Source of the DNA: a virus
Taxonomy: Duplodnaviria > Caudoviricetes
IMG/VR virus record: IMGVR_UViG_3300011337_000669
DNA: 64,000 bases
Reading direction: 5' to 3' (one strand)
The position numbers were made by a program, and so were the translations under genes. Position 1 is the stretch's first letter. Each line of letters opens with the position of its first letter. The notes below the pieces were generated by a model. The model saw only the letters and a program-made list of their open reading frames with translations, had not been told where the DNA came from and searched no databases. Positions 10,981 through 62,973 of the stretch are shown piece after piece.

Positions 10981-11054
10981 TTATAATTCTTTTTTAATAA
11001 ATAGAGAAAAAGTAATTTTTATACGAATTGTATTGTCTCCGTTTTAGATTTCCG

Positions 11055-14767: not shown

Positions 14768-14806
14768 AACAACATTGTAAATGGTTAGATATATTTTAGT
14801 AGTAAA

Positions 14807-28015: not shown

Positions 28016-30796
28016 TTACATAAATTTTTCCCACCCTTCTTCAGCTAAGTCATACATATAATCAGGACTTAGACCTCTTTTTTCCCAATACTTGAGTTCC
28101 AACTCAGTAATATCCAATACGTCTTCTTTTAACCTGTCTTGGTCTCCATCACTTAATGGATGACCATTAATAAGTTCACACTGAGATGTTGTGAAGATAC
28201 CTCTTTCTGATGGGTTATTAACAATTAATCCATTTCTTACCTCATCCTTGAAAACAACCATTAAAGGTTCAATTCTTTTGTTAAATGTCGCAATTGCTCT
28301 TGGAACATTATAGTCCCCTGTTAAATCAGGGTTATTGTCTAAAATATCTTTATCCAACATATAACAATTAATCATAACTCCATCCGTAATGGGTTTTGTT
28401 TTGACCCCATTAAACTCATTAAGGGCATTAATATCTTTAATTTGTTTTGGAGTCATCTTCTGAACATCACCTTGTGATGATTTAGTCCCATTATTAACAT
28501 ACATAATAACATCACCTAAACTCACATTCAAATTATTTTGTATTGCCAATTCCAAATATGCCATCCGGCTCATACTATTACCCGATTTAGTTTTGGTGTT
28601 TAATCTTTTTTTATATTCTTCAATAGTCAATTTAACCTTGGCTCTTTGGGCTATCTTACTTAACGGAATCTTTTTATCATAAATGGTTTGAAGATACTCA
28701 TAATAGTATTCAACGAATGCTTTCCCATCCCCTTGTAATAACATCTTAATCCCCTTATCTAAGAATGTCTCAATATAAATCGGAAGTTTTTTTGACTTGA
28801 TACTGTTACCTGTAAGTTTGATTTTACCCTTCGCATCCATAACCGCATAGTTCTTACGAGCCAAGTTGATACATGATGGCCAAACACCATCGGTATCCAA
28901 AGCCATTTCACCTCTCATGAATATATCGTTATACTCCGCAACATCCGCCTCAGGCCCGAAATATTCTTTACCCAACTTAACCTTCCAATTCAAACCACGT
29001 CCAACGTATTTACGATTCTTAGCATCCTCAGGTGTAGAAAAGTTCACACCGTCAGTATCCATTACCAACGGAACATATCCTTTCGACATAAAAAACTTAA
29101 TCATCTGACGAAGATATTGTCTTCCAGTGCAGGTAATCTGCTCGCCCATGTACATGTCACCCCAAGCATAAACCTGAGGGGCGGATAACGCACCGAACAT
29201 CGAGTTGATAAAAATTTTAATCGGTAATTGTTTGTTACCATAGGACTCTGACTTTTTACGATCGGTCTCATAATATTGCTCCGCCAAGTTCTTGTACTTG
29301 ATACGAGTATCTCGGAACCACTTTAACATACCTTTCATCGCGCCTGTTACGTCACAGTCAGGAAATACGTCGTGCACCAACTGAATGGAGGGGTATAGAG
29401 ACGAGAAGTCAAGCTTCAGTACGTCCTTACTATATCCCACCTTAAGTAGTCGTGAGAGACCTCCTACGAAGTCAGTCTTGGATTCCTTGGCAGGAATTGC
29501 TATGTTGTGTTTATATGACCACGCCATCATTAGCATCTTCCACAAAGTTGCCGTACCCATAGTGGATACTCTCTCATAGGTAGTCGGAATCATCGCCGCA
29601 AGTAAGAATGAACCTTGATTGAATTCTTGGTCAACTTTCAAGGTTTCGTCCAAGTCATCGTCAAGATATCTTTCAACCAAGTTGTCTCCCGTTACTTTAA
29701 GATAAACATCACTTCTACTCTCACAAATCTCATCTATCTTAGGGTCTTGTCCAACCTTACGGTAGTTTCCATTCTGTGTATTCAACCAAAACTCTTCTTT
29801 CTTGGTATAGAATGGAGCAATGTCCAAGTGGTCAATATAAACTCGGTCAGGGGCTTCAGCATTGATATACTGTGTAATATATTTCAAACCCGCAGACTTA
29901 ATACTTGAATTGATTGCTTGTGCTCTACGAACCGCATGAATAATATCAATAACATTATATCCCCAAATTGAAGTTTGAGTATATAACTCAACTTCGTTGG
30001 CAAGTTTTAACATACCTTCTTTTCTTGTGAATGAATGGTCGGGGTGTAGGGAACGACAAATCTTCTTGGGGTCAATACCCAAGATTTTACATCGTTCAAA
30101 TATCCAATGCCAGTCGAAGTTTGCTGAATTGTATCCACCAATAATGCTTGGTTTCAACTCATTAATGATACTAAAAAACTCTATGATGGCACCTCGTTCT
30201 TGAGATTCGTCAATACATTCAATTACTTTATGGTATCCTTTGTTTGTTTTAATTCCAATCATGAATATACGACCGTCTTTGGGTTCCAATGCGGTCGTTT
30301 CCAAGTCAAATACCAATCGGGTTACTTGATTATAATCCTCAAATCCTTTGAACAATCTTTTTTCTTTTGAAACAAGATATTGTTCAACAGGAGACAAAAT
30401 AATTATTTTATCTTTTGTTCTCTCACCCCACGGATCACATCCACCTTCTCTAAAAAATTGCACAAGTTCACGGTAACCTTTAAGAGATTTGACCATAAAG
30501 GTCATACCCTTTTCTAATCTTTTATTACCGTATGTTTCAAGTTTATCAATCATGATACCATGTTTGGTCATGGCTTCCTTCTGTGCGGCTTTTGAACCTC
30601 CATAGAAGTTAATATCCCGTAAGTCGCCAACCCAAGCGAATGGCGTAAAATTGTCTTTACGAATTTCTTTACCTTTGCCTGGAATTTCCTTGATCTTGAA
30701 GATAGTGTTGGAAGCGTAGTCGAACTCGATGGCGACTATAAATTCTTCGGGATCGTTTCCATGTAGGAACGATTCAATTTCTTTTTCTGTAAACAT
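28016..30796 (-). CDS. polB: Family B DNA polymerase with 3'-5' exonuclease domain
   Basis: Exonuclease motifs FDLETT and YNSANFD; polymerase motif A DFSSLYPS, motif B KIFINSMFG, motif C DTDG. Confidence 0.95.
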   Translation of the reverse strand: MFTEKEIESFLHGNDPEEFIVAIEFDYASNTIFKIKEIPGKGKEIRKDNFTPFAWVGDLRDINFYGGSKAAQKEAMTKHGIMIDKLETYGNKRLEKGMTFMVKSLKGYRELVQFFREGGCDPWGERTKDKIIILSPVEQYLVSKEKRLFKGFEDYNQVTRLVFDLETTALEPKDGRIFMIGIKTNKGYHKVIECIDESQERGAIIEFFSIINELKPSIIGGYNSANFDWHWIFERCKILGIDPKKICRSLHPDHSFTRKEGMLKLANEVELYTQTSIWGYNVIDIIHAVRRAQAINSSIKSAGLKYITQYINAEAPDRVYIDHLDIAPFYTKKEEFWLNTQNGNYRKVGQDPKIDEICESRSDVYLKVTGDNLVERYLDDDLDETLKVDQEFNQGSFLLAAMIPTTYERVSTMGTATLWKMLMMAWSYKHNIAIPAKESKTDFVGGLSRLLKVGYSKDVLKLDFSSLYPSIQLVHDVFPDCDVTGAMKGMLKWFRDTRIKYKNLAEQYYETDRKKSESYGNKQLPIKIFINSMFGALSAPQVYAWGDMYMGEQITCTGRQYLRQMIKFFMSKGYVPLVMDTDGVNFSTPEDAKNRKYVGRGLNWKVKLGKEYFGPEADVAEYNDIFMRGEMALDTDGVWPSCINLARKNYAVMDAKGKIKLTGNSIKSKKLPIYIETFLDKGIKMLLQGDGKAFVEYYYEYLQTIYDKKIPLSKIAQRAKVKLTIEEYKKRLNTKTKSGNSMSRMAYLELAIQNNLNVSLGDVIMYVNNGTKSSQGDVQKMTPKQIKDINALNEFNGVKTKPITDGVMINCYMLDKDILDNNPDLTGDYNVPRAIATFNKRIEPLMVVFKDEVRNGLIVNNPSERGIFTTSQCELINGHPLSDGDQDRLKEDVLDITELELKYWEKRGLSPDYMYDLAEEGWEKFM

Positions 30797-31506: not shown

Positions 31507-32098
31507 TAAGTGTAAAATTGAGAAGGAGGTTTGTGAATTTTATAAAAAAAATAAAAACTCAAACTTATATAGGGGACAATGTAAAAAATGTACGGACATA
31601 ACTTCATCTGTATATAAGAAAAACAATGCCGAAATTATATCTGAAAAATCTAAAAAATTCAGGAAGGAAAACCCTGAAATTAACAAAGAGAAATGTAGAA
31701 TTTATAGGGAAAAAAATCCTAAATCATTCAAAAAGTGGTTAGAAAAAAATAAAGAACATAGAAGAATCTATATAAATAATTATAACCAAAATCCTAAAAA
31801 TAAAATTAAAAATTCTTTGAGGTCAAGAATAAATGAACTGATGAACAAAAAATATGACAACCCAAGAACCATTAATTTGGTCGGTTGTGATTATGATTTT
31901 TTGATAAAATATATTGAGAGCAAGTTCACTGAAAACATGTCTTGGGATAATTACGGATATTATGGTTGGCATTTAGACCACATTATACCTTTATCATCGG
32001 CAAACACTAAAAAGGAAATTTATGATTTATATCATTACACCAATCTTCAACCATTATGGGGGACAGAGAATATGAAAAAAGGGTGTAAAATTGTTTAA
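31487..32098 (+). mobile_element. HNH homing endonuclease, copy 3
   Basis: MEKKICSKC...CKKC; WHLDHIIPLSS...HYTNLQPLWGTENMKKG. Confidence 0.85.
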
Positions 32099-33771
32099 GA
32101 TTCCTTCCTTAAATCACGGGAATAGTGGTCAAAACGGTCATGTTCGGTTGGAGTTAACAATAACAATCCAGGATTCAATTCTCCTTTTTTCAACAGCTGA
32201 TACATATGACTCATCCAGGTTTGTTCGAAAACATGGGCCCAAGTAGTATCTAAAAACATTTTTTGATTACCTGGTCTACTGACAATCTGAGGCCAGTTTG
32301 AGTAATAAATTTCACCTTTAGCATAAGGAACCCCCTTATGTGATAAGACAGCATTAAATTGTGTTTTAGGCGCATTTGGGTCTAAACCAATTTCAGGTAA
32401 TCTTGGTTTATCTGGCCAAAATTCTGTCCTAACATGTTGTGGAACGTTATACCATGACCACTGAGTACCATTATCACCATAAAACTCAGAATAGTTGAGT
32501 TTCAAGAAGTCGAAGTTTTCTTTTTTGATAATTTCTAATGACTTACTATATAAGTTTGGAACATATCGGTTGAATCCATTTCTACAAACTTTACCTTCGT
32601 TTGGATAAAAAAACATGTCATCTTCGAAGAACAAATAATAATCCAAATTTGTTTCATTTTGGAAGTGTTCGGCAATCCATTGCCTTCCCCCGCATATTCC
32701 TAAGTTATCTTTCTTAATATGTTCGAATCCGAATTCTTCACAAATTAGTGAATATTCCTCAGTAGTTGATAAATCACTCGAGTTGTCTAACAAAAATTTA
32801 GTTGTCTTGTTAAGATAATCTTTGTCGTATGCCAACATGGAGTCAATCAAAGTTCTAAATTGTTTCGGACTATTGAACGTGATTACGTAGAGACCTACTT
32901 TGTTGGTGTCCAAGTTATTTACAACTTGTACAGAACTTTCGTTTTTAACCTTGAGGTCATCATTTTTCAAGTCCTCAAAAAATTTACCAAATAATCCATT
33001 CCCTTCGATTTCAAAATAATTGAATAGGTCTGAATGTTTATAGCACATGATGCTGAATATTGATTCTTCAGTACCCATGTATCCTTCTTCTAAAGTGCTT
33101 TTTAACAATCCATAATAAATTCCATTAACATCACCAATTGTGTGTTTAGGACCTCCAAAAAAACCACCTCTTGCAACTTTGGTTACTTTATTACCGGCGA
33201 TGGAATTTAACTTGTTATATTCAAATCCATGAATTTCTCTTTCAGCATCATAAGGAAAACTAACAAATGAAAATTTGGAAATATATTTAGATAAGTTGTT
33301 CAAAACTTTATCGTGAGTAAAATAACCTGGATGTACTGTATTAGTTAATCCACCATCAATCCAAAACATATATTCCGAATTGAATTGGTCCATGATTTTG
33401 GCATCGTGTAATAAAAACATTTTTGACATGACCAAAGGATTGTAGTTTTCCAAACGACTTTGCGTAGATTCCTTTAACCACCCCGCCAAATTATGCCATT
33501 CGGGATTTGTTCTAATTTTTTGAATTAACGGAAAAAATTCAGAGTTGGTAAACCAACTAAGTGGTCGGGTAACGAATTGAGTATTTTCAGTGTTTCTTCT
33601 TTTAAAAACAAATTCTTTTAGTTCTTCATCTCCAAAGATGATTAAGTTTTCCTCTACTTCTAATAGTTTTTCAAACTTGTCTAAATAATGTTGATAAGGC
33701 CTTGACCATCCTTCTGTTAATTCTCCACGACCGATATCCCAAATACCTGTTACTAATGTTATATTACTCAT
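32095..33771 (-). CDS. WlaTC/HtrL-like glycosyltransferase fused to a GT-A-type domain
   Basis: TLVTGIWDIGRG...YNPLVMSKMFLL...YMFWIDGGL...MGTEESIF; C-terminal half has YYLFFEDDM. Confidence 0.7.
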   Translation of the reverse strand: MSNITLVTGIWDIGRGELTEGWSRPYQHYLDKFEKLLEVEENLIIFGDEELKEFVFKRRNTENTQFVTRPLSWFTNSEFFPLIQKIRTNPEWHNLAGWLKESTQSRLENYNPLVMSKMFLLHDAKIMDQFNSEYMFWIDGGLTNTVHPGYFTHDKVLNNLSKYISKFSFVSFPYDAEREIHGFEYNKLNSIAGNKVTKVARGGFFGGPKHTIGDVNGIYYGLLKSTLEEGYMGTEESIFSIMCYKHSDLFNYFEIEGNGLFGKFFEDLKNDDLKVKNESSVQVVNNLDTNKVGLYVITFNSPKQFRTLIDSMLAYDKDYLNKTTKFLLDNSSDLSTTEEYSLICEEFGFEHIKKDNLGICGGRQWIAEHFQNETNLDYYLFFEDDMFFYPNEGKVCRNGFNRYVPNLYSKSLEIIKKENFDFLKLNYSEFYGDNGTQWSWYNVPQHVRTEFWPDKPRLPEIGLDPNAPKTQFNAVLSHKGVPYAKGEIYYSNWPQIVSRPGNQKMFLDTTWAHVFEQTWMSHMYQLLKKGELNPGLLLLTPTEHDRFDHYSRDLRKES

Positions 33772-34645
33772 AAATTCTATTTAATTCTTCTAATATTTTA
33801 TAAAAACTTTTATTTTGTTCAAACATTTCATCTGATACACCTTGTGGAGAATTACCTTTGAACCACCATATATCAAAATCTTTTCTTTCGAATAATTCTC
33901 TATGGTTTACGTTCATTAAACTCATAATAATTTCTTCATGTAAAATTGATTTATCCTCACTTATAATCTTTTGAAGATAATCTTCAAATATATTTACAAC
34001 TTCATCCCACCTGTCTCTATGACCTCCGAACAGTCCTCCGATAATATGAATATTTCTATCATATTCTTTATACCATTTAGGGTCAACAGTTCCAGACCAA
34101 TAATTCCTATCATTTTCTTTACCAATAAGGAAAAATTTATCTCCTGTATCTTCAATTAGATTATGTAAAAAATCATTATTAAATAAATTACTTTCATAAT
34201 AACATCTCATTGCACCAACCGCAGTTAAGTATTTATCAGGAATTAAACCACAATGAGATAATCCTGCATCAATCCAATAATAATAATCATAACTCTTATC
34301 TTCTTTCCACCACCAATGAAATTTACTGTATTGTATTTCAACACATCTATCAGATTTTTTTGAATCATCAATATTTTTATATTGATTAATTAATTCTTTA
34401 AACTTGGTATTTGAGATATCAAATACTTCAAATACTAATTTATCTGAAGATATGTTATGTTGGGTATAAAAAAAATCTTTTAAATCTTCAATTTCTCTAT
34501 CTGAAGTATAACATAAAAAATCCGCGTCACTCATTTTTAATAATGATAATAAACTAAATTTGTAATGACCTCCCCTACTTGGTCTTCCTCCAAATTCGGT
34601 TCCATGTAAATCACTGTAAATCGATGTTATAAATTTAATTTTCAT
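33764..34645 (-). CDS. WlaTC/HtrL-like glycosyltransferase
   Basis: FITSIY...YSKFHW...YYYWIDAGLSHCG...IIGGLFGG...HEEIIM; start 34645 gives ATGA coupling. Confidence 0.65.
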   Translation of the reverse strand: MKIKFITSIYSDLHGTEFGGRPSRGGHYKFSLLSLLKMSDADFLCYTSDREIEDLKDFFYTQHNISSDKLVFEVFDISNTKFKELINQYKNIDDSKKSDRCVEIQYSKFHWWWKEDKSYDYYYWIDAGLSHCGLIPDKYLTAVGAMRCYYESNLFNNDFLHNLIEDTGDKFFLIGKENDRNYWSGTVDPKWYKEYDRNIHIIGGLFGGHRDRWDEVVNIFEDYLQKIISEDKSILHEEIIMSLMNVNHRELFERKDFDIWWFKGNSPQGVSDEMFEQNKSFYKILEELNRIYE

Positions 34646-35367
34646 ATATTTTCTATAAATCTTTGTGAATAATTTATATTCCCCCAATCCGAAAAATGTG
34701 GTAAATGAAATGGGGCAAAATTATTTGTTGGTTTAATTTTATGTGGAATTTCTGAATAGTAAATTCTACCCATCATATCTCCGTCCTCAGCACCCCACCC
34801 AACATACTTTTCATCAAACCCACCCAAAGATGTTAATAGATTAGTATCGGAAATATAAACTCCGCCTAATCCACCAGTATGATGTCTTAATGGTCCATTT
34901 TCTTTAGGTCCTGAATAAGCATAAGACCAATCGGAATTTTCGATAATAAATTTATCATCAACAATATAATCGGATACATTACTATCTAATTTTGCTAAAT
35001 CAAATGTACAAACATCTCCTTTATCTAAAGATTTAATTAATTCTAAAAGTTTTTCATAATCTTGTTCGTGGAAGAAAGCGTCGCAATCAATTACCATAAA
35101 AAAATCATAATCTTGTTTATCTTTTAGAATTATGTTAGTCTTTTCTGATTTTTTATATACTCCTAAAGGATATGAGATGTGAATTGAGTCGGAAATTATT
35201 TTTTTGGGAGAAAAGTCATATAAAGATGCTTCAGCGGTAATACCGTTGTTATTAAGATAACTTGATAATTTTTTTAATTCTCTCCAAGAAAAATTAACAT
35301 TTCTTATTCTTGTTGAATCAGGTTGCCCGTCATCCCAAAATTTCATATTTAAGGAAATACTATTCAT
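34642..35367 (-). CDS. GT2/GT7C-like (galactosyltransferase C-terminal type) glycosyltransferase
   Basis: IDCD DxD motif; GGFDEKYVGWGAEDGDMMGRI. Confidence 0.75.
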   Translation of the reverse strand: MNSISLNMKFWDDGQPDSTRIRNVNFSWRELKKLSSYLNNNGITAEASLYDFSPKKIISDSIHISYPLGVYKKSEKTNIILKDKQDYDFFMVIDCDAFFHEQDYEKLLELIKSLDKGDVCTFDLAKLDSNVSDYIVDDKFIIENSDWSYAYSGPKENGPLRHHTGGLGGVYISDTNLLTSLGGFDEKYVGWGAEDGDMMGRIYYSEIPHKIKPTNNFAPFHLPHFSDWGNINYSQRFIENI

Positions 35368-36295
35368 TTACTAATAATTTAATTCTTTCCCAAACATTAT
35401 ATGTTGGGTTTATAAAAAAATCTTGTTTTAACATTTTAATGTTTTCAACATATTGGGAATATAAGTCTGATTCATTACTAACAATTGATTTAATTTTATC
35501 AATCATTTCTTCCATACTCATGTTGTTAAGTGAGATATAACATCCATCAGGTATTAATTCTGATATGTTTGAACATCCTAAATAAATTGGTACGGTTTCA
35601 GTTAAAATAACATCCCAAAATTTTTCGCTAATATAATTTTTTTGAATTGTGTTTTCGCAGGCAATTGAAAATTTGTATTCATCAAGTCCAACATGTTTAT
35701 TCCACACTTCTCCTTTAATATTTTTACCATTATTTTCCCAATAAGTTCCGTAGATGTCAATTCTTTCATCTGTGGATAAATTAATTCCTAAGTTTGTTCT
35801 TTCTTCGTAATTTATTTTATTAGTATTTGGGTTCTGTAAATGATTGTAGTGACTGTAAGTGTCTTTTCTAACTATGATAGAAATTGGTTTATTCTTTGAA
35901 TAGGTTTTATTTTTTAAATTTAAAGACCAATCCCATTCTTCTCTACTGTCATTTTCTCCTCGTCCAGCATAAAACATAGGTAATAATGTTTCAATATATT
36001 CTTCTCTATCAGGATATTCTAATTTATCGGATATTAATATTTTTGAACAATAATCATGTATCCCATCTTTTGGTTGATTTGGGGACCATAAAGGTTCTTG
36101 TGAGATATAAAAAGTTCTTTCTTTTGGTGTCTCAATTTTATCCCAATCGGTTCTACCAAAAACTATTGTATAGTCTGGATTTTCTGTAACAAATGAATAT
36201 TGATTTAAATCATCATTTGTTACAAATTGTTTTATCATTCTTGCATTTATTGAAGGTGTATTTGTCCACCAACATTCTAATTTTATTTTAATCAT
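35360..36295 (-). CDS. GT10 alpha-1,3-fucosyltransferase-like protein
   Basis: YKFSIACENTIQKNYISEKFWD...VPIYLGCSNI. Confidence 0.8.
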   Translation of the reverse strand: MIKIKLECWWTNTPSINARMIKQFVTNDDLNQYSFVTENPDYTIVFGRTDWDKIETPKERTFYISQEPLWSPNQPKDGIHDYCSKILISDKLEYPDREEYIETLLPMFYAGRGENDSREEWDWSLNLKNKTYSKNKPISIIVRKDTYSHYNHLQNPNTNKINYEERTNLGINLSTDERIDIYGTYWENNGKNIKGEVWNKHVGLDEYKFSIACENTIQKNYISEKFWDVILTETVPIYLGCSNISELIPDGCYISLNNMSMEEMIDKIKSIVSNESDLYSQYVENIKMLKQDFFINPTYNVWERIKLLVNE

Positions 36296-36312
36296 AATTT
36301 ACTTTATTTTAA

Positions 36313-36912
36313 TTATATAATGTCTAAAGATAAACTATTATATCTAACAAATTTATCAGGACAGTATTTAAAAATATGTTCGTCTTTTAATTGTTTAATA
36401 TCTAATGCGTAATGCCCGTCAGCGTTTCTATAACTGATGTTATGTATATATGTTTTTTTTAACATACGGTATCTAATAATAAAGGACCCAATGTCAAAAA
36501 GACCTAAATTTAATCTATGTTCACCATCACCATACAATCTAATTTTTTCCGTTAAACCTGCTTTTTGTGAAAATAAAACTAAATCAACATCAGAATCCTT
36601 TTCTTCATTATAAGTTGAGATTAAATCCCAAGTAACAACATTATCGTCGTCTAAAAAATAACACCAATCATTATCATCTACTAGTATATTAGTAATAAAA
36701 TAATTCCTTTGTTCATGACCCCAAATATGTAAAGTATCTATCTTATAAAATTTAACTCTATCATCTTCTTTTAAAAAACTAAAATCATCTTCTCCAATGG
36801 TATTGCTGCCCTCAATTAAATGCCAATTAAAATCATCGACTTGATGTTTAATTGTTGAGTATATTGCCTTTAAATTATTATATCGATAAAGAGGAGTGAT
36901 AAAATGTATCAT
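36313..36912 (-). CDS. GT-A glycosyltransferase resembling GT43 beta-1,3-glucuronyltransferases
   Basis: IHFITPLYR...WHLIEG...QRNYFI...CYFLDDDN. Confidence 0.55.
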   Translation of the reverse strand: MIHFITPLYRYNNLKAIYSTIKHQVDDFNWHLIEGSNTIGEDDFSFLKEDDRVKFYKIDTLHIWGHEQRNYFITNILVDDNDWCYFLDDDNVVTWDLISTYNEEKDSDVDLVLFSQKAGLTEKIRLYGDGEHRLNLGLFDIGSFIIRYRMLKKTYIHNISYRNADGHYALDIKQLKDEHIFKYCPDKFVRYNSLSLDII

Positions 36913-37763
36913 ATTATGTAATTTTTGAAAATTAAAGACATTTCATTGTCCGAATCATTCTTCATTTTTTTTAAAGTTAAATTTAAATCAGTTAAATATT
37001 TTTGTCTAAAAAAATCGTAATTCTCTAAAATGTTATTTATGGTTTCAACCATCTTATCATACGGAGACCATATGATATGTTCATGATATGGAATATGTTC
37101 TTTATATGGAGATTCTTCACTAATAACTAATATTCCTGTCATTAATGCCGGTAAAACTCTTAATTCTTCTAAAGTACAATATTTGTCTGTTTGGTGTATA
37201 TTAACTAATACTTTATACTCATCCATGACACTTTTAATAATATCCTTAGAATACATAACACTACCTCCACACACATTATGAAAATAGTCCATATCAACTT
37301 TTTGATGGATGTTACGTCTTCTTGAACTTGAACTATGGATTGTTAAACAATTTTTAACCCTATTACCAATGTTATCTATATTGGTAATATCATATATTAA
37401 CGGGGGATAATATCGAAAAACATCAAAATTTTTTTTAAAGTGTTCTGATGTTTTTATATTGTTAATATTTGCGTTTGAGTATTCAAAAACCGATTGTAAT
37501 TTAATTAATTCTTCAAATCTATATACCTCACAAGAATAAATACCATTCCCATTATTAGTAATTGTGTGTTCATATTGAAAATCTAAATTAATATCTTTTA
37601 ATATATTATCACATCCAAAATTAATTGAATATGGAATATTATTTTTAGTTAAAAATAAAATTATAGTATTAAGAATATATTGATAATATTCGTTTAAATT
37701 TGAATTATCATATTTAGTTTCATAAAATAATTCACTGTTATTAACTATTTTACTTTTAATCAT
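36909..37763 (-). CDS. GT-B-type glycosyltransferase (CgeB-like)
   Basis: KVLVNIHQ...LEELRVLPALMTGILVISE. Confidence 0.6.
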   Translation of the reverse strand: MIKSKIVNNSELFYETKYDNSNLNEYYQYILNTIILFLTKNNIPYSINFGCDNILKDINLDFQYEHTITNNGNGIYSCEVYRFEELIKLQSVFEYSNANINNIKTSEHFKKNFDVFRYYPPLIYDITNIDNIGNRVKNCLTIHSSSSRRRNIHQKVDMDYFHNVCGGSVMYSKDIIKSVMDEYKVLVNIHQTDKYCTLEELRVLPALMTGILVISEESPYKEHIPYHEHIIWSPYDKMVETINNILENYDFFRQKYLTDLNLTLKKMKNDSDNEMSLIFKNYII

Positions 37764-38506
37764 AAATTTTCTTTATTATCCATAAAAAATTTTTCGTAAG
37801 GATATAATTGAACATCCTCCAATAATTGATCACATTCTATTTCTTCAGGAAAATAATATATATCCCCATTACATTTATACTTTTGGTTGAAAATATAATC
37901 CCTGTTAAAGAAAGAATATTTACCTATACCACTTTTTATATGTTCATGTCTTATATCTGAAATAATATTTTCAATCCCTCCGGAGTTTAATCTAAAAACT
38001 TTTTTTCCTTTTTGTTTATTTAACCGATACATAATATCCCCATCTTCTTCTCCAAACCCAATTAATCGTTCATCAAAATATCCTAACTCATCAATAAATT
38101 TTTTATTAGCAACAAAAAATGAGAATGTATTGTTAATAGTACTTAATCCAAAATATTCGGGGTTTTTAATGTGGTTAGAGACAATTTCAAACATCTCATC
38201 AGAAGTAACATTGATGTCATCATTTAATATCAATAAATCTTCTTTAGTTGAGTGTATTAATAATGTGTTCCACATTTTAGATAGTCCTCTAGTCTCAACA
38301 AAAAATATTGGAAATACATTTTTATAGTTAAGGCATAATGACAACATTTTTTGTCTGTATTCTTCAGAAAAGTTTGAATCCTTTTCTCCGTTAATACATA
38401 TTAAAATATTGTTATCAACACCTAAAGTTCTAATACTTTTCACTAATGATTCCACAAAATCATATCGTAATGAAAAAGTTGTAATGCCAATATCAAAATT
38501 ATTCAT
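37760..38506 (-). CDS. GT2-family glycosyltransferase
   Basis: LILNDD; LGYFDERLIGFGEEDGD. Confidence 0.75.
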   Translation of the reverse strand: MNNFDIGITTFSLRYDFVESLVKSIRTLGVDNNILICINGEKDSNFSEEYRQKMLSLCLNYKNVFPIFFVETRGLSKMWNTLLIHSTKEDLLILNDDINVTSDEMFEIVSNHIKNPEYFGLSTINNTFSFFVANKKFIDELGYFDERLIGFGEEDGDIMYRLNKQKGKKVFRLNSGGIENIISDIRHEHIKSGIGKYSFFNRDYIFNQKYKCNGDIYYFPEEIECDQLLEDVQLYPYEKFFMDNKENL

Positions 38507-38507
38507 A

Positions 38508-39896
38508 TTATAAATTATTTTTAATTTTTTGATTTATTTGAATTTTAAACTCTTTATACCAATTAAAAACATTAGTATGTAATTTTACATAATCTTCTTC
38601 GTTCATTTTATAATAATTAGTAATTTCATCCCAAGAATTAACTACAGGTAATGGAGAATTTCCCCAAACTTTAGTAAAATATTCTAAGTTATTATAATTT
38701 TTTAAAATTGGTATTGACCCTGATTCTAAACTCTCCATCAATCTAAATGAGTCAGGATGAACCCATCCCATAGGACATGGAACAAATTTTGTTTTATTGT
38801 AAATTGAAATACATTCATCTTGTGTTAAAGATGTTGAACAATTCCAAGAATTTGTTTTATGTATAAAAGTATTTTCCATATTTTCCATTACAGATAGTAA
38901 CTCTTGTCTATCTGATTTTGGTTGTCCAATAAAGGCAAATTCATATTCTTTTGTCTCTAAATAATTTTCATTTTTGTTAACAAACCCTGTTTTTACTCCT
39001 AAAGGAATAAATGTAACATTTTCATGATTAATATTTGAGTCATAATAATTTCTAAATACATGTTTAGCTTTTGAGTAATAATCACAGTTATGACTTAAGT
39101 TCTCATTAGAGAAATGTAATAAATAAAAAGTATAACCGAGTTCGACAAATTTATTTAAATAGTTATTAAAATCATCAGATATGTTATTTGAATTATTGGA
39201 ATAAATTATTACAGAATTATCTAATACTGTTGATAGTTGACCATCGTCAAATATTTTGTTGTGTTCAATATTTTTAAATAAAACTTCTGTGGTATATTCA
39301 AATTCAAAAGTCGTTTGGTCTCCATTAAATGTTTGCCAAATTAAGTTAAGAGGTTTTGTTTGCTTTCTATGAATTAAAAGTTTATTGTTATTATGTAATT
39401 CAAAAGGAATGTTTTTTTCTTTAAACCATTCTATAGTATTTACACAATCATATGCGTGTAAATCCTCAATAATGTATAAACCATTTTCTTTTAACTGAGG
39501 ATATAATGCCTCAAAACTTTTAATATGGTGAAAATGAGTATGAAGTCCATCATCAATGACGATATCATAATCACCTCCATATTCGACAACACATTTGTTT
39601 AAATCCTCAGTTACACTTTGATCGCCAATGAATATTCGAACATTTCCTTTTTCATAATTTTTACAATCTTGGTTTATATCAAAACCAATAAAATCTATGT
39701 TTGAAAAAAACTCAGTCCACATTTGTATTGAAGCTCCAGGAAATCTTGGGTCGGCAATACCTATTTCTAACATTTTAATTTTTTCGTCTTTTAATGGATA
39801 AAATAATTTTTGATATGTTTCGGTATAAGAGTGATATTCAAAATGTTGAGTACCTTTATCAGTACCAAGTCTATTTGCTATTTCTGTTAGTGTCAT
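38508..39896 (-). CDS. SAM-dependent sugar O-methyltransferase fused to an exostosin (GT47)-like domain
   Basis: GTDKG...MLEIGI...GFDI...GDQ...VIDDGLH...GLYIIEDL; C-terminal FVPCPMGWVHPDSFRLMESLESGSIPI. Confidence 0.7.
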   Translation of the reverse strand: MTLTEIANRLGTDKGTQHFEYHSYTETYQKLFYPLKDEKIKMLEIGIADPRFPGASIQMWTEFFSNIDFIGFDINQDCKNYEKGNVRIFIGDQSVTEDLNKCVVEYGGDYDIVIDDGLHTHFHHIKSFEALYPQLKENGLYIIEDLHAYDCVNTIEWFKEKNIPFELHNNNKLLIHRKQTKPLNLIWQTFNGDQTTFEFEYTTEVLFKNIEHNKIFDDGQLSTVLDNSVIIYSNNSNNISDDFNNYLNKFVELGYTFYLLHFSNENLSHNCDYYSKAKHVFRNYYDSNINHENVTFIPLGVKTGFVNKNENYLETKEYEFAFIGQPKSDRQELLSVMENMENTFIHKTNSWNCSTSLTQDECISIYNKTKFVPCPMGWVHPDSFRLMESLESGSIPILKNYNNLEYFTKVWGNSPLPVVNSWDEITNYYKMNEEDYVKLHTNVFNWYKEFKIQINQKIKNNL

Positions 39897-39907
39897 AGAT
39901 TAATGAG

Positions 39908-40513
39908 TTACTTCTTTTTTATTATTGATGTAACACTTTGATTATACTCTGGAGTTTTAGACCATATTCTAATATCGGAGACATTATTTTTTATGTATTC
40001 CTTTTCATCATCTAAGATATGATTGGACGCAATGTTGTTAGTAAATTTAAATGATTGTAACATATCTAAAGTAGTTATTAAATCATCAGGAAAAATAGTT
40101 CCAAAATTTTCTAATCTTGATGTATGTAAGTCTTCTAAAATATAAATTCCACCTTTCTTTAATCTTTTAAATAATATTCCAAACGATACTTGTTGTTGTT
40201 TCATTGTGTGACCACCATCATCAATAATTATGTCAAACTCAACATCAACTTCTTTTAAAAAACCATCTAAAGAGTTTCTATCTTCTTGATTAACAATGTA
40301 TGTTTTAACTCTTTCTTCATCATATTGAGTTTTATCTTCAATGTCAATTCCGTAAATGTTACCATCTTTAAATTTATCTGATAGGTATTTAAGACTTCCA
40401 CCATAATATACTCCAATCTCTAATATATGTTTACTATTACTTAAATCATTAAAATATGGTTCGTAAACATCTATGAATCCATGTTCGTATTTATCCGTAT
40501 TATATTTTTTCAT
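39908..40513 (-). CDS. SAM-dependent sugar O-methyltransferase (MycE-like)
   Basis: TDK..HGF...ILEIGVYYGGSL...GIDI...IIDDGGH...GGIYILEDL. Confidence 0.8.
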   Translation of the reverse strand: MKKYNTDKYEHGFIDVYEPYFNDLSNSKHILEIGVYYGGSLKYLSDKFKDGNIYGIDIEDKTQYDEERVKTYIVNQEDRNSLDGFLKEVDVEFDIIIDDGGHTMKQQQVSFGILFKRLKKGGIYILEDLHTSRLENFGTIFPDDLITTLDMLQSFKFTNNIASNHILDDEKEYIKNNVSDIRIWSKTPEYNQSVTSIIKKK

Positions 40514-40524
40514 ATATTTTTTTT

Positions 40525-50083: not shown

Positions 50084-53000
50084 TTATACCCCGTAAAGAT
50101 ATTTGGTGGCCAAATAATTATCCCTAATTTGTGCTGTTGATAGTAATGATTTATAAACAAATACGCTTCCAAATCTACCACTGAAATACTCAGAATTTTG
50201 ACTAAAAAATTCGTCTCTAGTAACTCCAAGAGTAAACGCGGTACCAGAAAGACCTCCGGCATTGGTTATTTCAGGACTAAAAAAACTGTATGTTGAAATT
50301 AAAGTACCGTTCTTATACATAGAAGAGGTATTAATATCCATCGTAATAGTTACCATTTGCCAAGTGTCGGCGCTATATGCAAGAGAGAAGGTTTGGGTGT
50401 TGGACTGACTAGGAGAGCTACTTTGGTATATTGTCTGACCACCATTTGATAGGTAAGTAGTTCTATATTTAAGATATTCATACTTACTCATAATAGTATA
50501 ATTTGCAGAACTGGTATTTGAAGGACGCACCCATGCCATTATCGTCAACGGTACTTCAAAGCTAAAACCATCAGTATAGTTATCTACCTTGAAATATTGA
50601 GTAAACCCATCAAGAGTGAAACCAGAATTTGCAGTGTATGTTGGTCCACCAACTATTGTAGCATTATTACCGTTTCCTGATTGGTCCGCCCACACATTTC
50701 CAACAGGTGCAACCGCACTATTCAAATATAAATCGTAGCCTGGCTCTATCTGAGGTATAATTGTTGGTGTTGGTGTTGATGTTCTGGTAGGTGTTGGAGT
50801 TCGTGTTGCTGTTATGGTAGGTGTTGGAGTTCGTGTTTGAGTTGCCGTTGGGGTTAATCCAACAGTTACTGTTGGAGTTTGGGTTTGAGTTGGTGTATTT
50901 GTTGGAGTTTGTGTTGGAGTTTGTGTTCTTGTGTTAGTCGGAGTAGAAGTTTGTGTTCTTGTGTTAGTTGGAGTGGCAGTATTTGACGCAGTATTTGACG
51001 CAGTATTTGTTGGGGTTTGAGTTGGGGTTTTAGTTTGAGTATTTGTTGGTGTGGAAGTGTTTGATGTTGTATTAGTTGGTGTTTGAGTAGGTGTTTCACT
51101 TGCAGTTTGTGTTGGAGTTACTGTATTAGTTGGTGTTTGAGTTTGAGTTGGAGTCTCAGTATTAGTTGGTGTTACGGTATTAGTTGGAGTTTGAGTAGGT
51201 GTTTCACTTGCAGTTTGTGTTGGAGTTTCAGTTGGAGTAACTGTTGGTGTCTCTGTATTAGTTGGTGTTTGAGTTTGAGTTGGAGTCTCTGTATTAGTTG
51301 GTGTTACGGTATTAGTTGGAGTTTGAGTAGGTGTTTCACTTGCAGTTTGTGTTGGAGTTTCGGTATTAGTTGGTGTCGGAGTTTCAGTATTAGTTGGTGT
51401 CGGAGTTTCGGTATTAGTTGGTGTTACGGTATTTGTTGGAGTCTCTGTGTTAGTTGGTGTTACGGTATTAGTTGGTGTTACGGTATTTGTTGGAGTCTCT
51501 GTATTGGTTGGTGTTTGAGTAGGAGTTTCGCTAGCAGTTTGCGTAGGAGTTTCAGTATTAGTTGGTGTTTGAGTAGGTGTTTCACTTGCAGTTTGTGTCG
51601 GAGTTTCAGTATTAGTTGGTGTCGGAGTTTCAGTATTGGTCGGAGTTGGTGTTTCACTAGCGGTTTGAGTTGGAGTTTCTGTATTAGTTGGAGTTTGAGT
51701 TACAGTATTAGTTGGAGTTTGTGTTGGTGTTTCTGTATTAGTTGAAGTTTGAGTTTGAGTTTGAGTATTAGTTGGAGTTTGAGTTGGAGTTTCTGTATTA
51801 GTTGGAGTATTAGTTGGAGTTTCAGTAGGCGTTGGAGTTTGTGTTTCAGTCGCCGTTGGAGTTAATCCAACAGTTACTGAAGGAGTTGGAGTATTTGTTG
51901 GAGTTTTAGTAGGTGTTGGAGTTTGCGTTTCAGTTGCCGTTGGAGTTAATCCAACAGTTACTGAAGGAGTTGGAGTATTAGTTGGTGTTTGTGTATTAGT
52001 TGGAGTATTAGTTGGTGTTTGAGTATTGGTTGACGTTTGAGTTTGAGTTATAGTATTAGTTGGAGTATTTGTTGGAGTTTCAGTAGGCGTTGGAGTTTGT
52101 GTTTCAGTTGCTGTTGGAGTTAATCCAACAGTTACTGTTGGAGTTTGGGTTTGAGTTGGTGTATTTGTTGGTGTTTGTGTTTGTGTTTCAGTTGCCGTTG
52201 GAGTTAATCCAACAGTTACTGAAGGAGTTGGAGTTTGTGTTGGAGTCTGTGTTGGAGTTGGTGTTGCGTTAAATACAAATTCTGGTGTAAAATCAAATGT
52301 TGTTGTTTCAGAAGTCACATAACTGATATTTGTAAAACTTACGGTTTGATTTAGACTATCATAGTCTCCATTCTCAAAAGTTTGAGTAAATCCTGACAAT
52401 TCACCTGTAGGAATTACTACAGTTATAGGTATTGAAATTGTTCCTCCAGATGTTATGCCTAAAACCGCAGTAAAGCTAGTTGTAAAATCACTATCCATAA
52501 CTCTTTCAGATAATGCTGAGAATCCAGATCCAATAGAACCAGCGAAGAAATATCCTGTTAGGATAATATTATTGTTTCCCGCTGTTGGAGTTTGTGTTGG
52601 AGTTTGTGTTTGAGTTGCTGTATTAGTTGGGGTTTGTGTTTGAGTTGAAGTATTCGTTGGTGTAGGTGTTTGAGTTGGTAATACAGAACATAAACTAAAC
52701 GGACTAGTAACCTGACCATTAAAGTCAATCTCAACTAAAATACCTAAATAATTATAAAATCCCGTAATGTTACCAACATTTCCACCATTTGGCGTATCAA
52801 AGAAATGAGTGTTTTGGTCAAATTCTTGATTCTCACCGTATATAAGTACACTATATTGGTTATCACAGGCGTCGTACTGGCTTAATTCACTATAGAAACA
52901 ACTAAATTCATATAATATAACTCCTGAAGGTGTTACAGTTTGAGTTGGTGTTGCAGTTTGAGTTGGTGTAAGTGTTGGAGATTCGATAGGTGTTTCTGTA

Positions 53001-53317
53001 TTAGTAGGAGTATTGGTTGGAGTCTCCGTAGCAGTGCTAGTTGGAGTTTCAGTAGGTGTTGGTGTTGGAGAGGTTTCAGTAGGTGTTACCGTTGGAGTTG
53101 GTGTCGTAGTAGGTGTGGGACCTAGTACTACAACAGAATACATCGTAGCATAAGTAGGTACATAACAGTTGTAAGTTCCGAAATAATAATCCGAAATATA
53201 ATTAAATGGGAAAGTTTGTACCCCCAAATCTATTGTTCCACCAGATATTGGTAGATACGTTACGTTGGTTGTTAAACCACTCAAATTATCACTTAATATT
53301 CTTACACCTATTGCCAT
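50084..53317 (-). CDS. Mucin-like protein (1077 aa) with C-terminal LamG domain
   Basis: About 500 aa TP tract; [13 protein letters not shown]...TIMAWVRP...WQMVTIT...[25 protein letters not shown]. Confidence 0.85.
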
Positions 53318-53347
53318 ATCTATAAATACTCAAAAAAAATTATTCAT

Positions 53348-53911
53348 TTAACATACTCCAACATTTATTATTAATGTACCGCTTAACTGAACAAATTTTG
53401 CTCCGTCTGAAATTGTAAAATTAGCTCCGATTGGTGGGATCGTTAATTCTCTATTACCATAAACATTATCACCAACTTCTAAAATATCAAATGGTTTTGT
53501 TGTAAATATTTTTACATTTGCGGGATTTGCAAACGAATTAACTGATTGACAAACATTTTGATACCATCCACCAGTTCTTAAATTTCTTTCATAAACTGAT
53601 GACGGAGTAACTGATGGTGTCACAGTATTTGTTGGAGTTGGTGTTTGGGTTGTTGGTGTTGCGGATAAACTAACTGATGGAGTTATTGTAGGCGTAACCG
53701 TTGGAGTTGGTGTACTACTTGGACATAGCCCTATATTAGTTATACTTAACGGCCCACTGTAACTTTCTTGTATTAAATCTTCTGCACAAACAAACTCCGT
53801 GTTTAATGGTGTTATGGTTCCAACACTTACAACACTAGTACAACCTGTATATCGATAATATCCATCTTCAACACTATTGTAGTTTATTATTTGGTAATAG
53901 TTACATGCCAT
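53348..53911 (-). CDS. Short mucin-like protein with Cys-containing terminal modules
   Basis: MACNYYQIIN...[12 protein letters not shown]...CQS...VGVC. Confidence 0.75.
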   Translation of the reverse strand: MACNYYQIINYNSVEDGYYRYTGCTSVVSVGTITPLNTEFVCAEDLIQESYSGPLSITNIGLCPSSTPTPTVTPTITPSVSLSATPTTQTPTPTNTVTPSVTPSSVYERNLRTGGWYQNVCQSVNSFANPANVKIFTTKPFDILEVGDNVYGNRELTIPPIGANFTISDGAKFVQLSGTLIINVGVC

Positions 53912-55865
53912 ATATTAACTCATAAGTCAAATCATTATCAGGTATTAAAACATAATCCAAATCATTATCAGGTATTAATTCATAAGTTAAATCATTACTA
54001 GGTACAACAATCACACAATTAGGACAATCAGGATTCAACAATCCATATCTATTCTTTAGAATCTTAAAGTTGTGTTTTACCTGAGACGCATTCAATGGTT
54101 CAACATACATTCTAAACGCACTGACATCTCCAATCATACTACCACCAAAATATTCTTCTAACTTAATATGTGTGGTTAATCCCGAATATATTGTATTATC
54201 TAAATCATGAGTAGTCAAACACTCAGGGTCTTGTTGATATTCAATTTCATTAATAGTTTCAGGACATCCTCCTGAGAATGTTAAGTTGTCATGAAGACCT
54301 TGAGTACCTCCACCAATTGAAATATTATATCCAACACCAATTTGTTTTTCTTTTTGAACATCTAATAGTCTCGGAATAATCTCTTCAAAATTTTCGGCAA
54401 CCATAAACAACTTACCGTTAACAAATATTTTGAGAGCTCCTAATCTATATTTTTTCTCTTCAGTCCAATTATCATTAAAAGTTACAATTTCGGTTGTTGC
54501 CGGATCATAAGGTAATTCATGAGTCAGTGGAGGTTCAATTAAACTAACACTATTGTTTGCCGGTGTTGCAGTATAAATTGTATCAACAAGAAGACCAAGT
54601 CCTCCCTTTTCATAAAGGTCGCATGTATCCAACCACTGATTTCTTTGGAATACAGCGTCAATTTGAACCCAATGTTCTAAATTAATATACGGAGTATTCT
54701 TACATTCATCAAAAATACCTCTTGTTGAACACCATTCCGTTACGGAGGTTCCTGTCGCATAAGTCAATCCCGTCAAACAAGTACCACTTGTTTCACAACC
54801 TCCAGTTATTCTATATGTCTTGATACAAACTCTTGGGTTACCCGTGTCTCCACTCAATCGTATCGACAATCCATTAGATACACCATCATATAACGGGTCT
54901 TTTTCAGGGTATTGTGCGTTAACCTGGCATTCACAATTACATCCACACGAACAATTTTTTGATGTACCACCTGAAATCTGATATACTTCAAGGCAATCTG
55001 AAGAGGTATTGGCCGAACTAGCACATCCACAAGTATGCATACAAGTCAAACCTGAAGTTACTCTTGTATATCCTGTATCTTGTTTAGGTGACCCATCAGC
55101 ATAATGGTAGAATTTGTTTTCCGCTCTCGACCCCATATAAAAGAACGTACCTTTATTATTAGGGTATCGATTGTTCAGTCCGACACTTGTGTCTCCTGTC
55201 CATCGGTATCTTAACATAAACTCAGCAGTCCATCCTAACGGAACTCTCTGTGGAAAAATTTGGTAATCATATCCAGGTATTTTGTAAAACCCTTGAAAGA
55301 ATCCACCATTTAATCTGGCAAAGTATCCAACATCACCGCCATCAGTTGCATAGTTCAAATCGTAATTGTAAGAATCATCATTCCAAAGTCGATTTTGTGT
55401 GGTAGTAAATCCTGTGATAGGGTGAAGTTTCATTCTCCTATCGTACTTATACCTACTATATTTGTCGGAATTATTTATGTAAAGTCCTGTGGTTATTTGG
55501 ATTGTCTCCCCTGACATTTTTTTAACCAAACCATTATCAATACCTGTTAAACCAACATCACAAAGGTCAGTTACTTTAGGACAAAAGTTAGGGTCAATGT
55601 CATCTGGATTCCAATAATTTTCAGAAACAATAACATCATTATCAAAAGTACAAGAACCTGATTGGCATATCGTTGTTCCTGTACTATTGAAATCAAATCT
55701 GAATGGCATTCTATTTCCATCGACTTCACCTATTAATAATGGTGAAAAAATTACCTCTTGGTCATAGTCCTTCTCGTCTGAAGCCAAACAGATATCGGTA
55801 ATTTCATTGACGGGTTTAATACCCCAACGCCTAAAATTATACTGATTAATATTTTGATATGCCAT
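53901..55865 (-). CDS. Large Cys-rich LamG-like putative structural protein
   Basis: GWTAEFMLR, LKIFVNGKL, FGGSMIGDVSAFRMYVEPLNASQVKHNF; C-terminal 10-aa tandem repeat (NDLTYELIPD) x3. Confidence 0.6.
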   Translation of the reverse strand: MAYQNINQYNFRRWGIKPVNEITDICLASDEKDYDQEVIFSPLLIGEVDGNRMPFRFDFNSTGTTICQSGSCTFDNDVIVSENYWNPDDIDPNFCPKVTDLCDVGLTGIDNGLVKKMSGETIQITTGLYINNSDKYSRYKYDRRMKLHPITGFTTTQNRLWNDDSYNYDLNYATDGGDVGYFARLNGGFFQGFYKIPGYDYQIFPQRVPLGWTAEFMLRYRWTGDTSVGLNNRYPNNKGTFFYMGSRAENKFYHYADGSPKQDTGYTRVTSGLTCMHTCGCASSANTSSDCLEVYQISGGTSKNCSCGCNCECQVNAQYPEKDPLYDGVSNGLSIRLSGDTGNPRVCIKTYRITGGCETSGTCLTGLTYATGTSVTEWCSTRGIFDECKNTPYINLEHWVQIDAVFQRNQWLDTCDLYEKGGLGLLVDTIYTATPANNSVSLIEPPLTHELPYDPATTEIVTFNDNWTEEKKYRLGALKIFVNGKLFMVAENFEEIIPRLLDVQKEKQIGVGYNISIGGGTQGLHDNLTFSGGCPETINEIEYQQDPECLTTHDLDNTIYSGLTTHIKLEEYFGGSMIGDVSAFRMYVEPLNASQVKHNFKILKNRYGLLNPDCPNCVIVVPSNDLTYELIPDNDLDYVLIPDNDLTYELIYGM

Positions 55866-58570: not shown

Positions 58571-58792
58571 TCCCCTTTTGATGACTATTGGCATTGTAAT
58601 CCAAACAAATATAATCCCGATTATATACATCCTCATAAAAAAAAGACATCATTTCAAATATGGAGTGAGGATAAAATTAGAATTGACAACATTATAAAAT
58701 ATAATTATAATTTGGAAGTGGTATGGGAATCAAATTTTGACGAAAAAACCACAATTCAAAATATAATTAAAAAATATGAAACAAAAAATTAA
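58571..58792 (+). pseudogene. 5'-truncated DUF559/Vsr-like homing endonuclease remnant
   Basis: Open frame without a usable 5' start: FDDYWHCNPNKY...IWSEDKIRIDNIIKYNYNLEVVWES..., homologous to the DGDFYHCNP...LIRYWE end of 13837-14745. Confidence 0.75.
58683..58711 (+). promoter_or_regulatory. Perfect sigma70-type promoter consensus
   Basis: TTGACA (58683-58688), 17-nt spacer, TATAAT (58706-58711); 65 nt upstream of the GT start at 58776. Confidence 0.6.
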
Positions 58793-62936: not shown

Positions 62937-62973
62937 TGGATAGAATTATTGATTTGAAAGAAAACGAAATTAT

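Follow-up and report, generated by a model that had tools for sequence, protein, structure and literature searches.

Thr/Pro-tract proteins encoded beside a GT60-family glycosyltransferase: a candidate mucin-type O-glycosylation system in a freshwater jumbo phage

Results

Thr/Pro-tract proteins and the trunk protein

The window analysed here is a 64,000-nucleotide (64 kb) part of an uncultured freshwater jumbo myovirus (IMG/VR record IMGVR_UViG_3300011337_000669). Between positions 32095 and 55865 a run of minus-strand genes encodes a Cys-rich trunk protein, five proteins with long Thr/Pro-rich (TP) tracts and ten further proteins headed by a soluble glycosyltransferase of family GT60 (Table 1). 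A reading made from the letters alone (the sequence-only reading) had described five signal-less TP-tract proteins carrying Kelch-like, LamG or Cys-bracketed modules at 41863-53911, and all five were recovered on the minus strand. Membrane segments and signal peptides are missing from all 16 proteins of the run, in agreement with the cytoplasmic setting that was also proposed.

The tracts make up 21–63% of each protein and total 1,911 residues over the five (Thr 45%, Pro 19%, Asn 8%, Gln 7%, Glu 5%, Ser 5%), presenting approximately 950 hydroxyl side chains. Their DNA is built of degenerate tandem repeats whose periods are multiples of 6 nt, and no other open reading frame (ORF) of at least 100 amino acids (aa) in the window contains a TP tract. 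Mucins are recognised by a PTS domain, a long tandem-repeat region rich in Pro, Thr and Ser, and by secretory passage. The tracts have the character of a PTS domain, while candidate substrates and enzymes alike lack a hydrophobic N-terminus and any membrane segment. The TP proteins are therefore mucin-like in build rather than canonical mucins. Three plus-strand ORFs (43342-43992, 48148-48984 and 51083-51745) were rejected as genes, being antisense shadows of Kelch repeats or TP tracts.

The tracts are separated and followed by a total of 16 globular modules, with five module pairs common to paralogues. The set comprises two copies of a 68-aa N-terminal module, two six-blade Kelch-like propellers, one Laminin_G_3 domain and several Cys-bracketed modules of approximately 70 aa. 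The 1557-aa protein combines two Cys-bracketed modules that are 99% identical with one further module, while its N-terminus shares 85% identity with the N-terminus of the 352-aa protein and its Kelch domain 55% with the propeller of the 637-aa protein. Modules of the 1077-aa protein recur in the 352-aa and 637-aa proteins, and structural neighbours of the small modules are all viral, with a weak likeness to domains of phage tail-type proteins. The Laminin_G_3 domain (PF13385) occupies residues 906-1064 of the 1077-aa protein (E 1.5e-13, 51.6 bits against a threshold of 27.6). The propellers consist of six repeats of about 45 aa with a DNA repeat period of 126–132 nt, and that of the 637-aa protein matches phrog_27227 (3e-52) and, in the PDB, 9tsn ‘Kelch protein’ (E 1.5e-8) and KLHL20 (3e-5), with matches ranging to 3e-4. 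As Pfam returned no Kelch match at E ≤0.01 in the TP-tract proteins, the domain is considered divergent. A tblastn search of GenBank phages with the Kelch domain gave no match, for which the low-complexity filter is possibly responsible.

The 68-aa module belongs to a family of 241 representative clusters and occupies residues 1-68 in almost every one of the 150 matches listed, in proteins of 51–1602 aa. Matches of this module to huge fn3/Ig-repeat proteins (P0145, P0175) seem to reflect compositional or general beta-sandwich resemblance and were not used. The tract genes vary strongly among close relatives in number and in length, from approximately 130 to approximately 1,800 aa.

The trunk protein, encoded first in the run, has 1,474 homologues, with 80–96% identity among the best 120. 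In many relatives its 650-aa core is followed without a break by a TP tract, then by small modules and a LamG domain. Examples with a fused TP stalk are P0279 (1131 aa), which ends in a LamG domain, and P0277 (953 aa). The trunk can therefore be viewed as a base from which a stalk can emerge. An Atlas feature search with the trunk protein led to viral LamG-type proteins. Its AlphaFold2 model, built on a shallow 20-sequence alignment, gave no fold information (predicted local distance difference test score, pLDDT, 25.8).

Table 1. Genes of the Thr/Pro-tract and glycan run, other features of the window, and hydroxylase-family genes of complete relatives.
Feature	Position	Strand	Remarks
654-aa Cys-rich trunk protein	53901-55865	-	Head of gene run; no TP tract in this phage
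187-aa protein	53348-53911	-	N-terminal Cys module, 40-aa TP(S) tract, C-terminal module
1077-aa protein	50084-53317	-	Four TP tracts (624 aa), three small modules, C-terminal Laminin_G_3
637-aa protein	48144-50057	-	230-aa N-terminal domain, 137-aa TP tract, six-blade Kelch-like propeller
1557-aa protein	43173-47846	-	68-aa N-terminal module, five TP-tract blocks totalling 974 aa, Cys modules, Kelch-like C-terminus
352-aa protein	41863-42921	-	68-aa N-terminal module, two TP tracts, two small Cys-bracketed modules
GT60-family soluble glycosyltransferase	40525-41787	-	PF11397; first of ten downstream genes
Methyltransferase	39908-40513	-	Pfam; island
RXYLT1_C-like protein	38508-39896	-	Methyltransferase-like N-terminus; Pfam; island
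GT2-like protein	37760-38506	-	Below Pfam cut-off; island
Protein without family match	36909-37763	-	Island
Protein without family match	36313-36912	-	Island
GT10 fucosyltransferase-like protein	35360-36295	-	Pfam; island
Glyco_transf_7C-like protein	34642-35367	-	Pfam; island
307-aa protein without family match	33764-34687	-	Conserved
558-aa two-domain HtrL-type enzyme	32095-33771	-	HtrL_YibB (PF09612, 8.7e-23) at residues 3-257
Three large proteins (>1859, 1696, 599 aa)	1-12854	-	Adjoin baseplate hub
Baseplate hub	13034-13777		
HNH/homing-endonuclease-like gene	13837-14775		Between baseplate hub and tail tube genes
Tail tube	14807-15295		
Tail sheath	16259-19459		
512-aa protein	24175-25713		Complete Fe/Mn superoxide dismutase at residues 37-226
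Family-B DNA polymerase (PolB)	28016-30796		
Glycosyltransferase	58776-59999	+	Outside reported span
GT2_5+GT4 two-domain transferase	61311-62936	+	Outside reported span
UDP-glucose/GDP-mannose dehydrogenase	62974 to window end (63999)	+	Outside reported span
PF13640 genes, complete relative G004	L108:1405-2145; L110:1480-2082		
PF13640 genes, complete relative G005	L109; L111; L113		

A GT60 enzyme closest in fold to peptide transferases

The GT60-like character that the sequence-only reading gave to the first downstream gene is borne out by a strong match to PF11397 (E 3.7e-64, 217.9 bits against a cut-off of 21). The chain begins directly at the first beta strand of a GT-A catalytic domain (residues 2-324), followed by an extra C-terminal beta domain (approximately 325-415) that lies outside the alignment with Gnt1, the Dictyostelium Skp1-hydroxyproline N-acetylglucosamine (GlcNAc) transferase. 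The DSH metal motif, D92-S93-H94, is invariant in both alignments made, one of them of 22 phage homologues (39–88% identical) in which many other positions are also invariant. H229 is likewise invariant in both, and H223 is invariant in one and approximately 95% conserved in the other. In all, 6,999 related protein clusters were found, and every homologue listed carries PF11397.

The AlphaFold model of the enzyme (pLDDT 88.5) has Gnt1 (Q8T1C6) as its best Swiss-Prot match by far (E 2.2e-23, template modelling score 0.63). The other 29 fold matches listed are polypeptide N-acetylgalactosamine (GalNAc) transferases or their inactive or putative relatives, at approximately 1e-10, and the top 47 PDB chains are all polypeptide GalNAc-transferases. 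Every near relative thus starts a glycan on a polypeptide. A PDB sequence search with the enzyme gave no usable match; MdbA (E 0.05) was discarded as noise. Family GT60 comprises the protist mucin-type polypeptide alpha-GlcNAc-transferases and the cytoplasmic Skp1 enzyme, which start O-glycans (PMC8724618, PMC6939170), as the sequence-only reading had stated. Thr/Pro repeats are the classical acceptors of families GT60 and GT27 (PMC8724618). By analogy, the donor sugar of the phage enzyme is probably GlcNAc.

A conserved glycan core and a strain-variable island

The ten downstream genes were compared by tblastn of window genes against 80 close relatives (GT60 83–92% identical). A constant order emerges of trunk, TP-tract genes, GT60, a small transferase gene, the 307-aa gene, the 558-aa HtrL-type gene, a 125-aa gene and PolB, and conservation among the ten genes is limited to those for GT60, the 307-aa protein and the HtrL-type enzyme. 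The seven-gene island between them (34642-40513) is found in this window and in three of the 80 relatives (L055, L057 and L078, the last without the 284-aa gene), and a typical relative, L035, has a single GT25 gene in its place. Of the contigs from lake metagenomes of other studies, some contain the whole island with 23–39 differences and others skip all or part of it, with uneven depth along it, so several island variants coexist. Near-identical metatranscriptome contigs cover the GT60, HtrL and island genes, with parts of the island uncovered, which carries no information on expression. The contigs may derive from DNA carry-over and lend the proposed system weak support.

The 307-aa protein, whose start is probably the ATG at 34645, has WID.GL and GG.FGG motifs that align in register with the HtrL domain, and on this pairwise similarity (E 0.003) it may be a distant HtrL-like transferase. 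It stands beside GT60 and HtrL in approximately 74 of the 80 close relatives, and weakly (24–28%) in XacN1-like and Gemmatimonas loci. The C-terminal domain of the 558-aa enzyme looks GT-A-like by motif, with no PDB sequence match to this half.

The sequence-only reading had called the ten genes a complete O-glycosylation cluster. The genes are there (32095-41787), but completeness does not hold, given that three have no family match, seven are strain-variable and no nucleotide-sugar synthesis gene lies among them. Family scans of the cluster proteins also gave no match to flippase, polymerase or lipid-carrier transferase families. Since membrane segments are missing as well, a soluble, cytoplasmic, stepwise pathway acting on a soluble acceptor is the natural reading.

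Action on something other than protein would have to assume that GT60 is mis-assigned and that the cluster modifies host lipopolysaccharide or capsule, as in superinfection exclusion, or phage DNA. HtrL_YibB and GT25 are indeed annotated as lipopolysaccharide-related, DNA-modifying phage glucosyltransferases are known (PMC5852040) and a dUTPase/dCTP-deaminase-like gene is nearby. However, almost all of the nearest GT60 fold relatives are polypeptide transferases, membrane proteins and lipid-carrier enzymes are missing from the cluster, and no hydroxymethylase-type base-modification gene was seen in the window. Taken together, these features make a non-protein target very improbable.

Recurrence of the GT60–tract link in phages and bacteria

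All 76 of the close-relative contigs that include DNA upstream of GT60 carry tract ORFs there, and in approximately 70 of them the nearest ends no more than 0.5 kb from GT60. In a distant lineage (L098 and L100; 34-kb viral contig) a lone GT60, approximately 40% identical, directly follows a 402-aa protein built from Cys-bracketed modules joined by (TP)n linkers. The only cultured phages found with GT60 are XacN1, Xoo-sp13 and the Stenotrophomonas phages CM1 and RAS14 (42–47% identical). XacN1 has a GT60 with 45% identity, and its ORF330 is an HtrL-type protein with 41% identity over the full length. TPTPTPT-coding DNA was present in five of five GT60-bearing XacN1-like jumbo genomes, at 5–16 sites each, and in none of five GT60-free jumbo phages (RaK2, Atu_ph07, phiKZ, Mel-JY01 and LR756508), a small sample in which the positives are related to one another. 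It was also present in two complete relatives of this phage. In XacN1-like contigs the tract genes usually lie more than 10 kb from GT60, so adjacency is not universal.

XacN1 carries two kinds of TP-tract protein. ORF350 lies between two tail-tube paralogues and beside the head completion gene, and appears LamG-like by eye with no family match. ORF232-237 (L101:4049-13105) are six tandem paralogues (phrog_15511) with a conserved N-terminus of approximately 200 aa, a TP(S) tract of approximately 100 aa and unrelated C-terminal domains. They constitute a fibre-like family in a phage that has been described as without tail fibres. Matches of the TP proteins of this study to phrog_15511 were not counted as homology because only the TP tract aligned. 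XacN1 virions contain at least two Schiff-stained glycoproteins, for which the phage's own transferases were suggested as the cause (PMC5852040).

Outside phages, a GT60 homologue is present in 255 bacterial species representatives, and an HtrL-type gene stands beside it in 36 of 80 fetched bacterial loci. Tracts of Ser/Thr/Pro (S/T/P) of at least 80 aa are enriched near bacterial GT60 (15 ORFs in 219 kb within 1.5 kb of the gene, against 21 in 982 kb further out; binomial p 9e-4), a figure to be read knowing that loci of high GC content yield spurious S/T/P ORFs and that related genomes are not independent. Three neighbours serve as examples. A Saprospiraceae protein directly upstream of GT60 (P0400) has the same module-and-linker build, a Jiulongibacter tract protein (P0399) has an N-terminal hydrophobic stretch that by eye is a membrane anchor, and a Gemmatimonadaceae protein (P0401) joins a PqqD domain to an S/T/P tail. 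In Gemmatimonas loci (L133:9212-9952, and L129, L132, L134 and L137) a PqqD-domain gene (Pfam 1.5e-7) lies directly upstream of the GT60–HtrL pair. The Gemmatimonadaceae PqqD protein may combine an element for peptide recognition with a substrate for glycosylation.

Recurrence of the adjacency over bacterial phyla and two or three phage lineages supports the functional link drawn by the sequence-only reading. It is the strongest computational support for such a link, and it makes a protein O-glycosylation system likely. The transferases might alternatively modify other proteins, such as the major capsid, sheath or tube protein, with the TP tracts as plain unglycosylated flexible linkers. A precedent is offered by mycobacteriophages, whose own enzymes, as related in PMC12363180, glycosylate capsid and tail-tube proteins, and XacN1-like loci without tract genes within 10 kb of GT60 would fit, as would the XacN1 glycoprotein bands, which were not assigned to proteins and could be capsid or sheath (PMC5852040). 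This alternative does not readily account for the tightly kept order of tract gene and GT60 in close relatives, for the same adjacency in a distant lone-GT60 phage and in capsid-less bacteria, or for the standing of Thr/Pro repeats as classical GT60 and GT27 acceptors (PMC8724618), and we consider it unlikely.

Acceptor residue and virion location

The nearest characterised GT60 relative acts on hydroxyproline and not threonine. By analogy, the acceptor in the tracts could be hydroxyproline rather than threonine, and both are possible. The complete relatives G004 (approximately 321 kb) and G005 (approximately 326 kb) each contain three 2-oxoglutarate-Fe(II) oxygenase genes (PF13640). For two of those in G004 the best PDB matches include hypoxia-inducible factor prolyl hydroxylase and prolyl 4-hydroxylases. 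These enzymes could hydroxylate prolines of the TP tracts. The genes lie far from the cluster, and no PF13640 or hydroxylase gene was found in Pfam scans of the window or in XacN1-like genomes.

Virion location is the weakest step of the model. The sequence-only reading had termed the TP proteins virion proteins, a claim that family searches and gene context did not support: neither Pfam nor PHROG gave a structural-family match for the five TP proteins or the trunk, and the cluster is embedded among PolB and other replication and metabolic genes, with sheath, tube and baseplate genes at least 12 kb away. Together with bacterial neighbours that include membrane-anchored and PqqD-type tract proteins with no virion link, this accords with glycosylated TP proteins that act in or around the infected cell or are released at lysis, as decoys, matrix or debris-coating adhesins. 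However, the constant N-terminal module combined with variable distal Kelch and LamG domains is the pattern typical of docking fibres. Further evidence in favour of the virion comes from trunk–stalk fusions, the binding nature of the distal domains, XacN1 ORF350 between tail-tube paralogues, the glycoproteins in XacN1 virions and the weak resemblance of small modules to domains of tail-type proteins. A purely non-virion role thus appears improbable, and the 68-aa module would be the part that attaches to the virion.

Source phage and other features of the window

No GenBank phage is close to the window at the DNA level, and the best match of the sheath is Microcystis phage Mel-JY01 (31%). Relatives are numerous in IMG/VR, including complete genomes of approximately 321 kb with terminal repeats, and window DNA is present in river and lake metagenomes from several studies. 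The best ‘bacterial’ GT60 matches (L114-L122; contigs of metagenome-assembled genomes labelled Saprospiraceae, Bacteroidia and others) are 63–71% identical in the best segment, and these contigs are of low GC content and mostly short. They may be phage DNA binned into the assembled genomes, in which case the binning weakly hints at a host among Saprospiraceae or other Bacteroidota.

The three large proteins at the start of the window, for which no Pfam match or TP tract was found, and for the two largest also no PHROG match, are likely baseplate or fibre proteins. In the superoxide dismutase protein the remaining approximately 280 residues have no family match. An exonuclease and a dUTPase are interleaved with the plus-strand sugar genes at 58776-63999, and those sugar genes could provide precursors for this glycan or lengthen it. 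In scans for promoters and terminators, counts were not above those of shuffled sequence.

Discussion

The genes at this locus suggest a molecular model in which a phage modifies its own repeat proteins inside the host cytoplasm. Soluble GT60 would add the first sugar to the hydroxyls lining the TP tracts of the five proteins encoded upstream and, in relatives, to the stalk of the trunk protein. The 307-aa protein and the HtrL-type enzyme would then extend the glycan, and the strain-variable island, which here includes a fucosyltransferase-like enzyme and methyltransferases, would tailor it. The product would be extended, stiffened and protease-resistant stalks bearing Kelch, LamG and small Cys-bracketed binding modules, and the proteins would most likely dock on the virion via their conserved N-terminal modules to act as adhesion or decoration fibres. 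We judge that a model in which phage enzymes, beginning with GT60, O-glycosylate the phage's mucin-like proteins in the cytoplasm for a role on the virion is slightly favoured overall, and that glycosylation taken alone, leaving the virion aside, merits somewhat more confidence.

Several points weigh against this model. TP linkers also exist as plain spacers. The limits noted above for the phage and bacterial tract counts apply, adjacency is usually lost in XacN1-like contigs, the XacN1 bands could be other proteins, the nearest characterised relative uses hydroxyproline, and the TP proteins have neither a structural-family match nor structural genes as neighbours.

The closest parallels are found in protists. 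The GT60 polypeptide alpha-GlcNAc-transferases of Dictyostelium and Trypanosoma cruzi share with the phage enzyme the Pfam and CAZy family, the GT-A fold with a D-x-H motif, the lack of a detected ricin-type lectin domain and presumed Thr/Pro-rich acceptors (PMC8724618). They act on secreted proteins in the Golgi, whereas the phage enzyme and its candidate substrates lack signal and membrane segments. An additional C-terminal beta domain of approximately 95 aa also sets the phage enzyme apart. The Skp1 pathway of Dictyostelium and Toxoplasma (PhyA, Gnt1, PgtA and AgtA) is, like the phage system, soluble and cytoplasmic, and supplies the best structural match. Both also include a fucosyltransferase step among the later transferases (PMC6939170), and the three prolyl-hydroxylase-family genes in each of two complete phage relatives may extend the likeness. 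In contrast, the Skp1 pathway has a single target residue in a single protein, whereas the phage tracts offer close to a thousand candidate repeat sites. The later phage enzymes come from other families (GT10, HtrL and GT25), and hydroxylase genes are missing from the phage cluster and window and from XacN1-like phages.

Among phages, self-protein glycosylation is documented in few cases. The mycobacteriophages Che8, Corndog and Myrna glycosylate their virions with their own glycosyltransferases (Freeman et al. 2023, as cited in PMC12363180 and PMC12582341). As presented in those citing papers, the targets there too are proteins of the phage itself, modified in the host cytoplasm by phage transferases, and the particle is shielded by its glycan, but the acceptors are capsid and tail-tube proteins rather than long mucin-like repeats. 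The hosts are Actinobacteria, whereas the phage studied here comes from freshwater, with a weak hint towards Bacteroidota. XacN1, Xoo-sp13, CM1 and RAS14 are nearer in content, sharing GT60, the 558-aa HtrL-type enzyme (41%) and several TP-tract proteins with a conserved N-terminus. They form another lineage, in which PolB of this phage finds no match at E 1e-5, the tract genes are dispersed and the position of the island after GT60 is taken by a carbamoyltransferase. The XacN1 paper drew no connection between GT60 and TP tracts (PMC5852040).

More distant parallels concern either the linkers or the autonomy of the pathway. Bacterial cellulases and S-layer proteins have extended PT linkers between modules that are Thr-glycosylated and thereby protease-protected; these are secreted, modified outside the cytoplasm by membrane-bound enzymes and tens of residues long, against hundreds here. 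Mimivirus fibrils arise by the same autonomous, virus-encoded glycosylation. We know of no Thr/Pro repeat stalks of this kind in giant viruses. In chlorovirus PBCV-1, virus-encoded soluble glycosyltransferases and tailoring enzymes build the virion glycan without the host secretory pathway (PMC5852040). Giant viruses differ in having eukaryotic hosts and other glycosyltransferase families, and the PBCV-1 glycans are N-linked to the capsid protein.

A bolder proposal would unite these observations. The GT60 and HtrL cassette, which is present in jumbo phages and in many of the 255 GT60-bearing bacterial species representatives, across several phyla, would, where it stands beside S/T/P-tract proteins, mark an undescribed cytoplasmic mucin-type O-glycosylation system. 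In the phage lineage it would be hydroxyproline-based with extensin-like stalks, and strain-variable glycans and stalk lengths would form a rapidly evolving host-range or masking layer. The hydroxyproline route is raised because the nearest relative is the Skp1 transferase and phage relatives encode prolyl-hydroxylase-family enzymes. We offer this proposal tentatively and, as a whole, doubt it more than we believe it.

A literature search found no account of GT60 with repeat-stalk substrates, of a strain-variable glycan island or of bacterial counterparts. Phages of an abundant freshwater jumbo clade seem to combine mucin-like repeat proteins of their own with a peptide O-GlcNAc-transferase family of eukaryotic type. 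Should the model hold, they would have a ‘glycocalyx’ that evolves fast in its length, its tip domains and its sugar coat, given that the stalk genes and the glycan island both vary between strains. Such a layer would matter for host range and adhesion, for the stability of the particle and for its masking from immune factors or proteases, and cytoplasmic mucin-type glycosylation by GT60 would exist in bacteria too.

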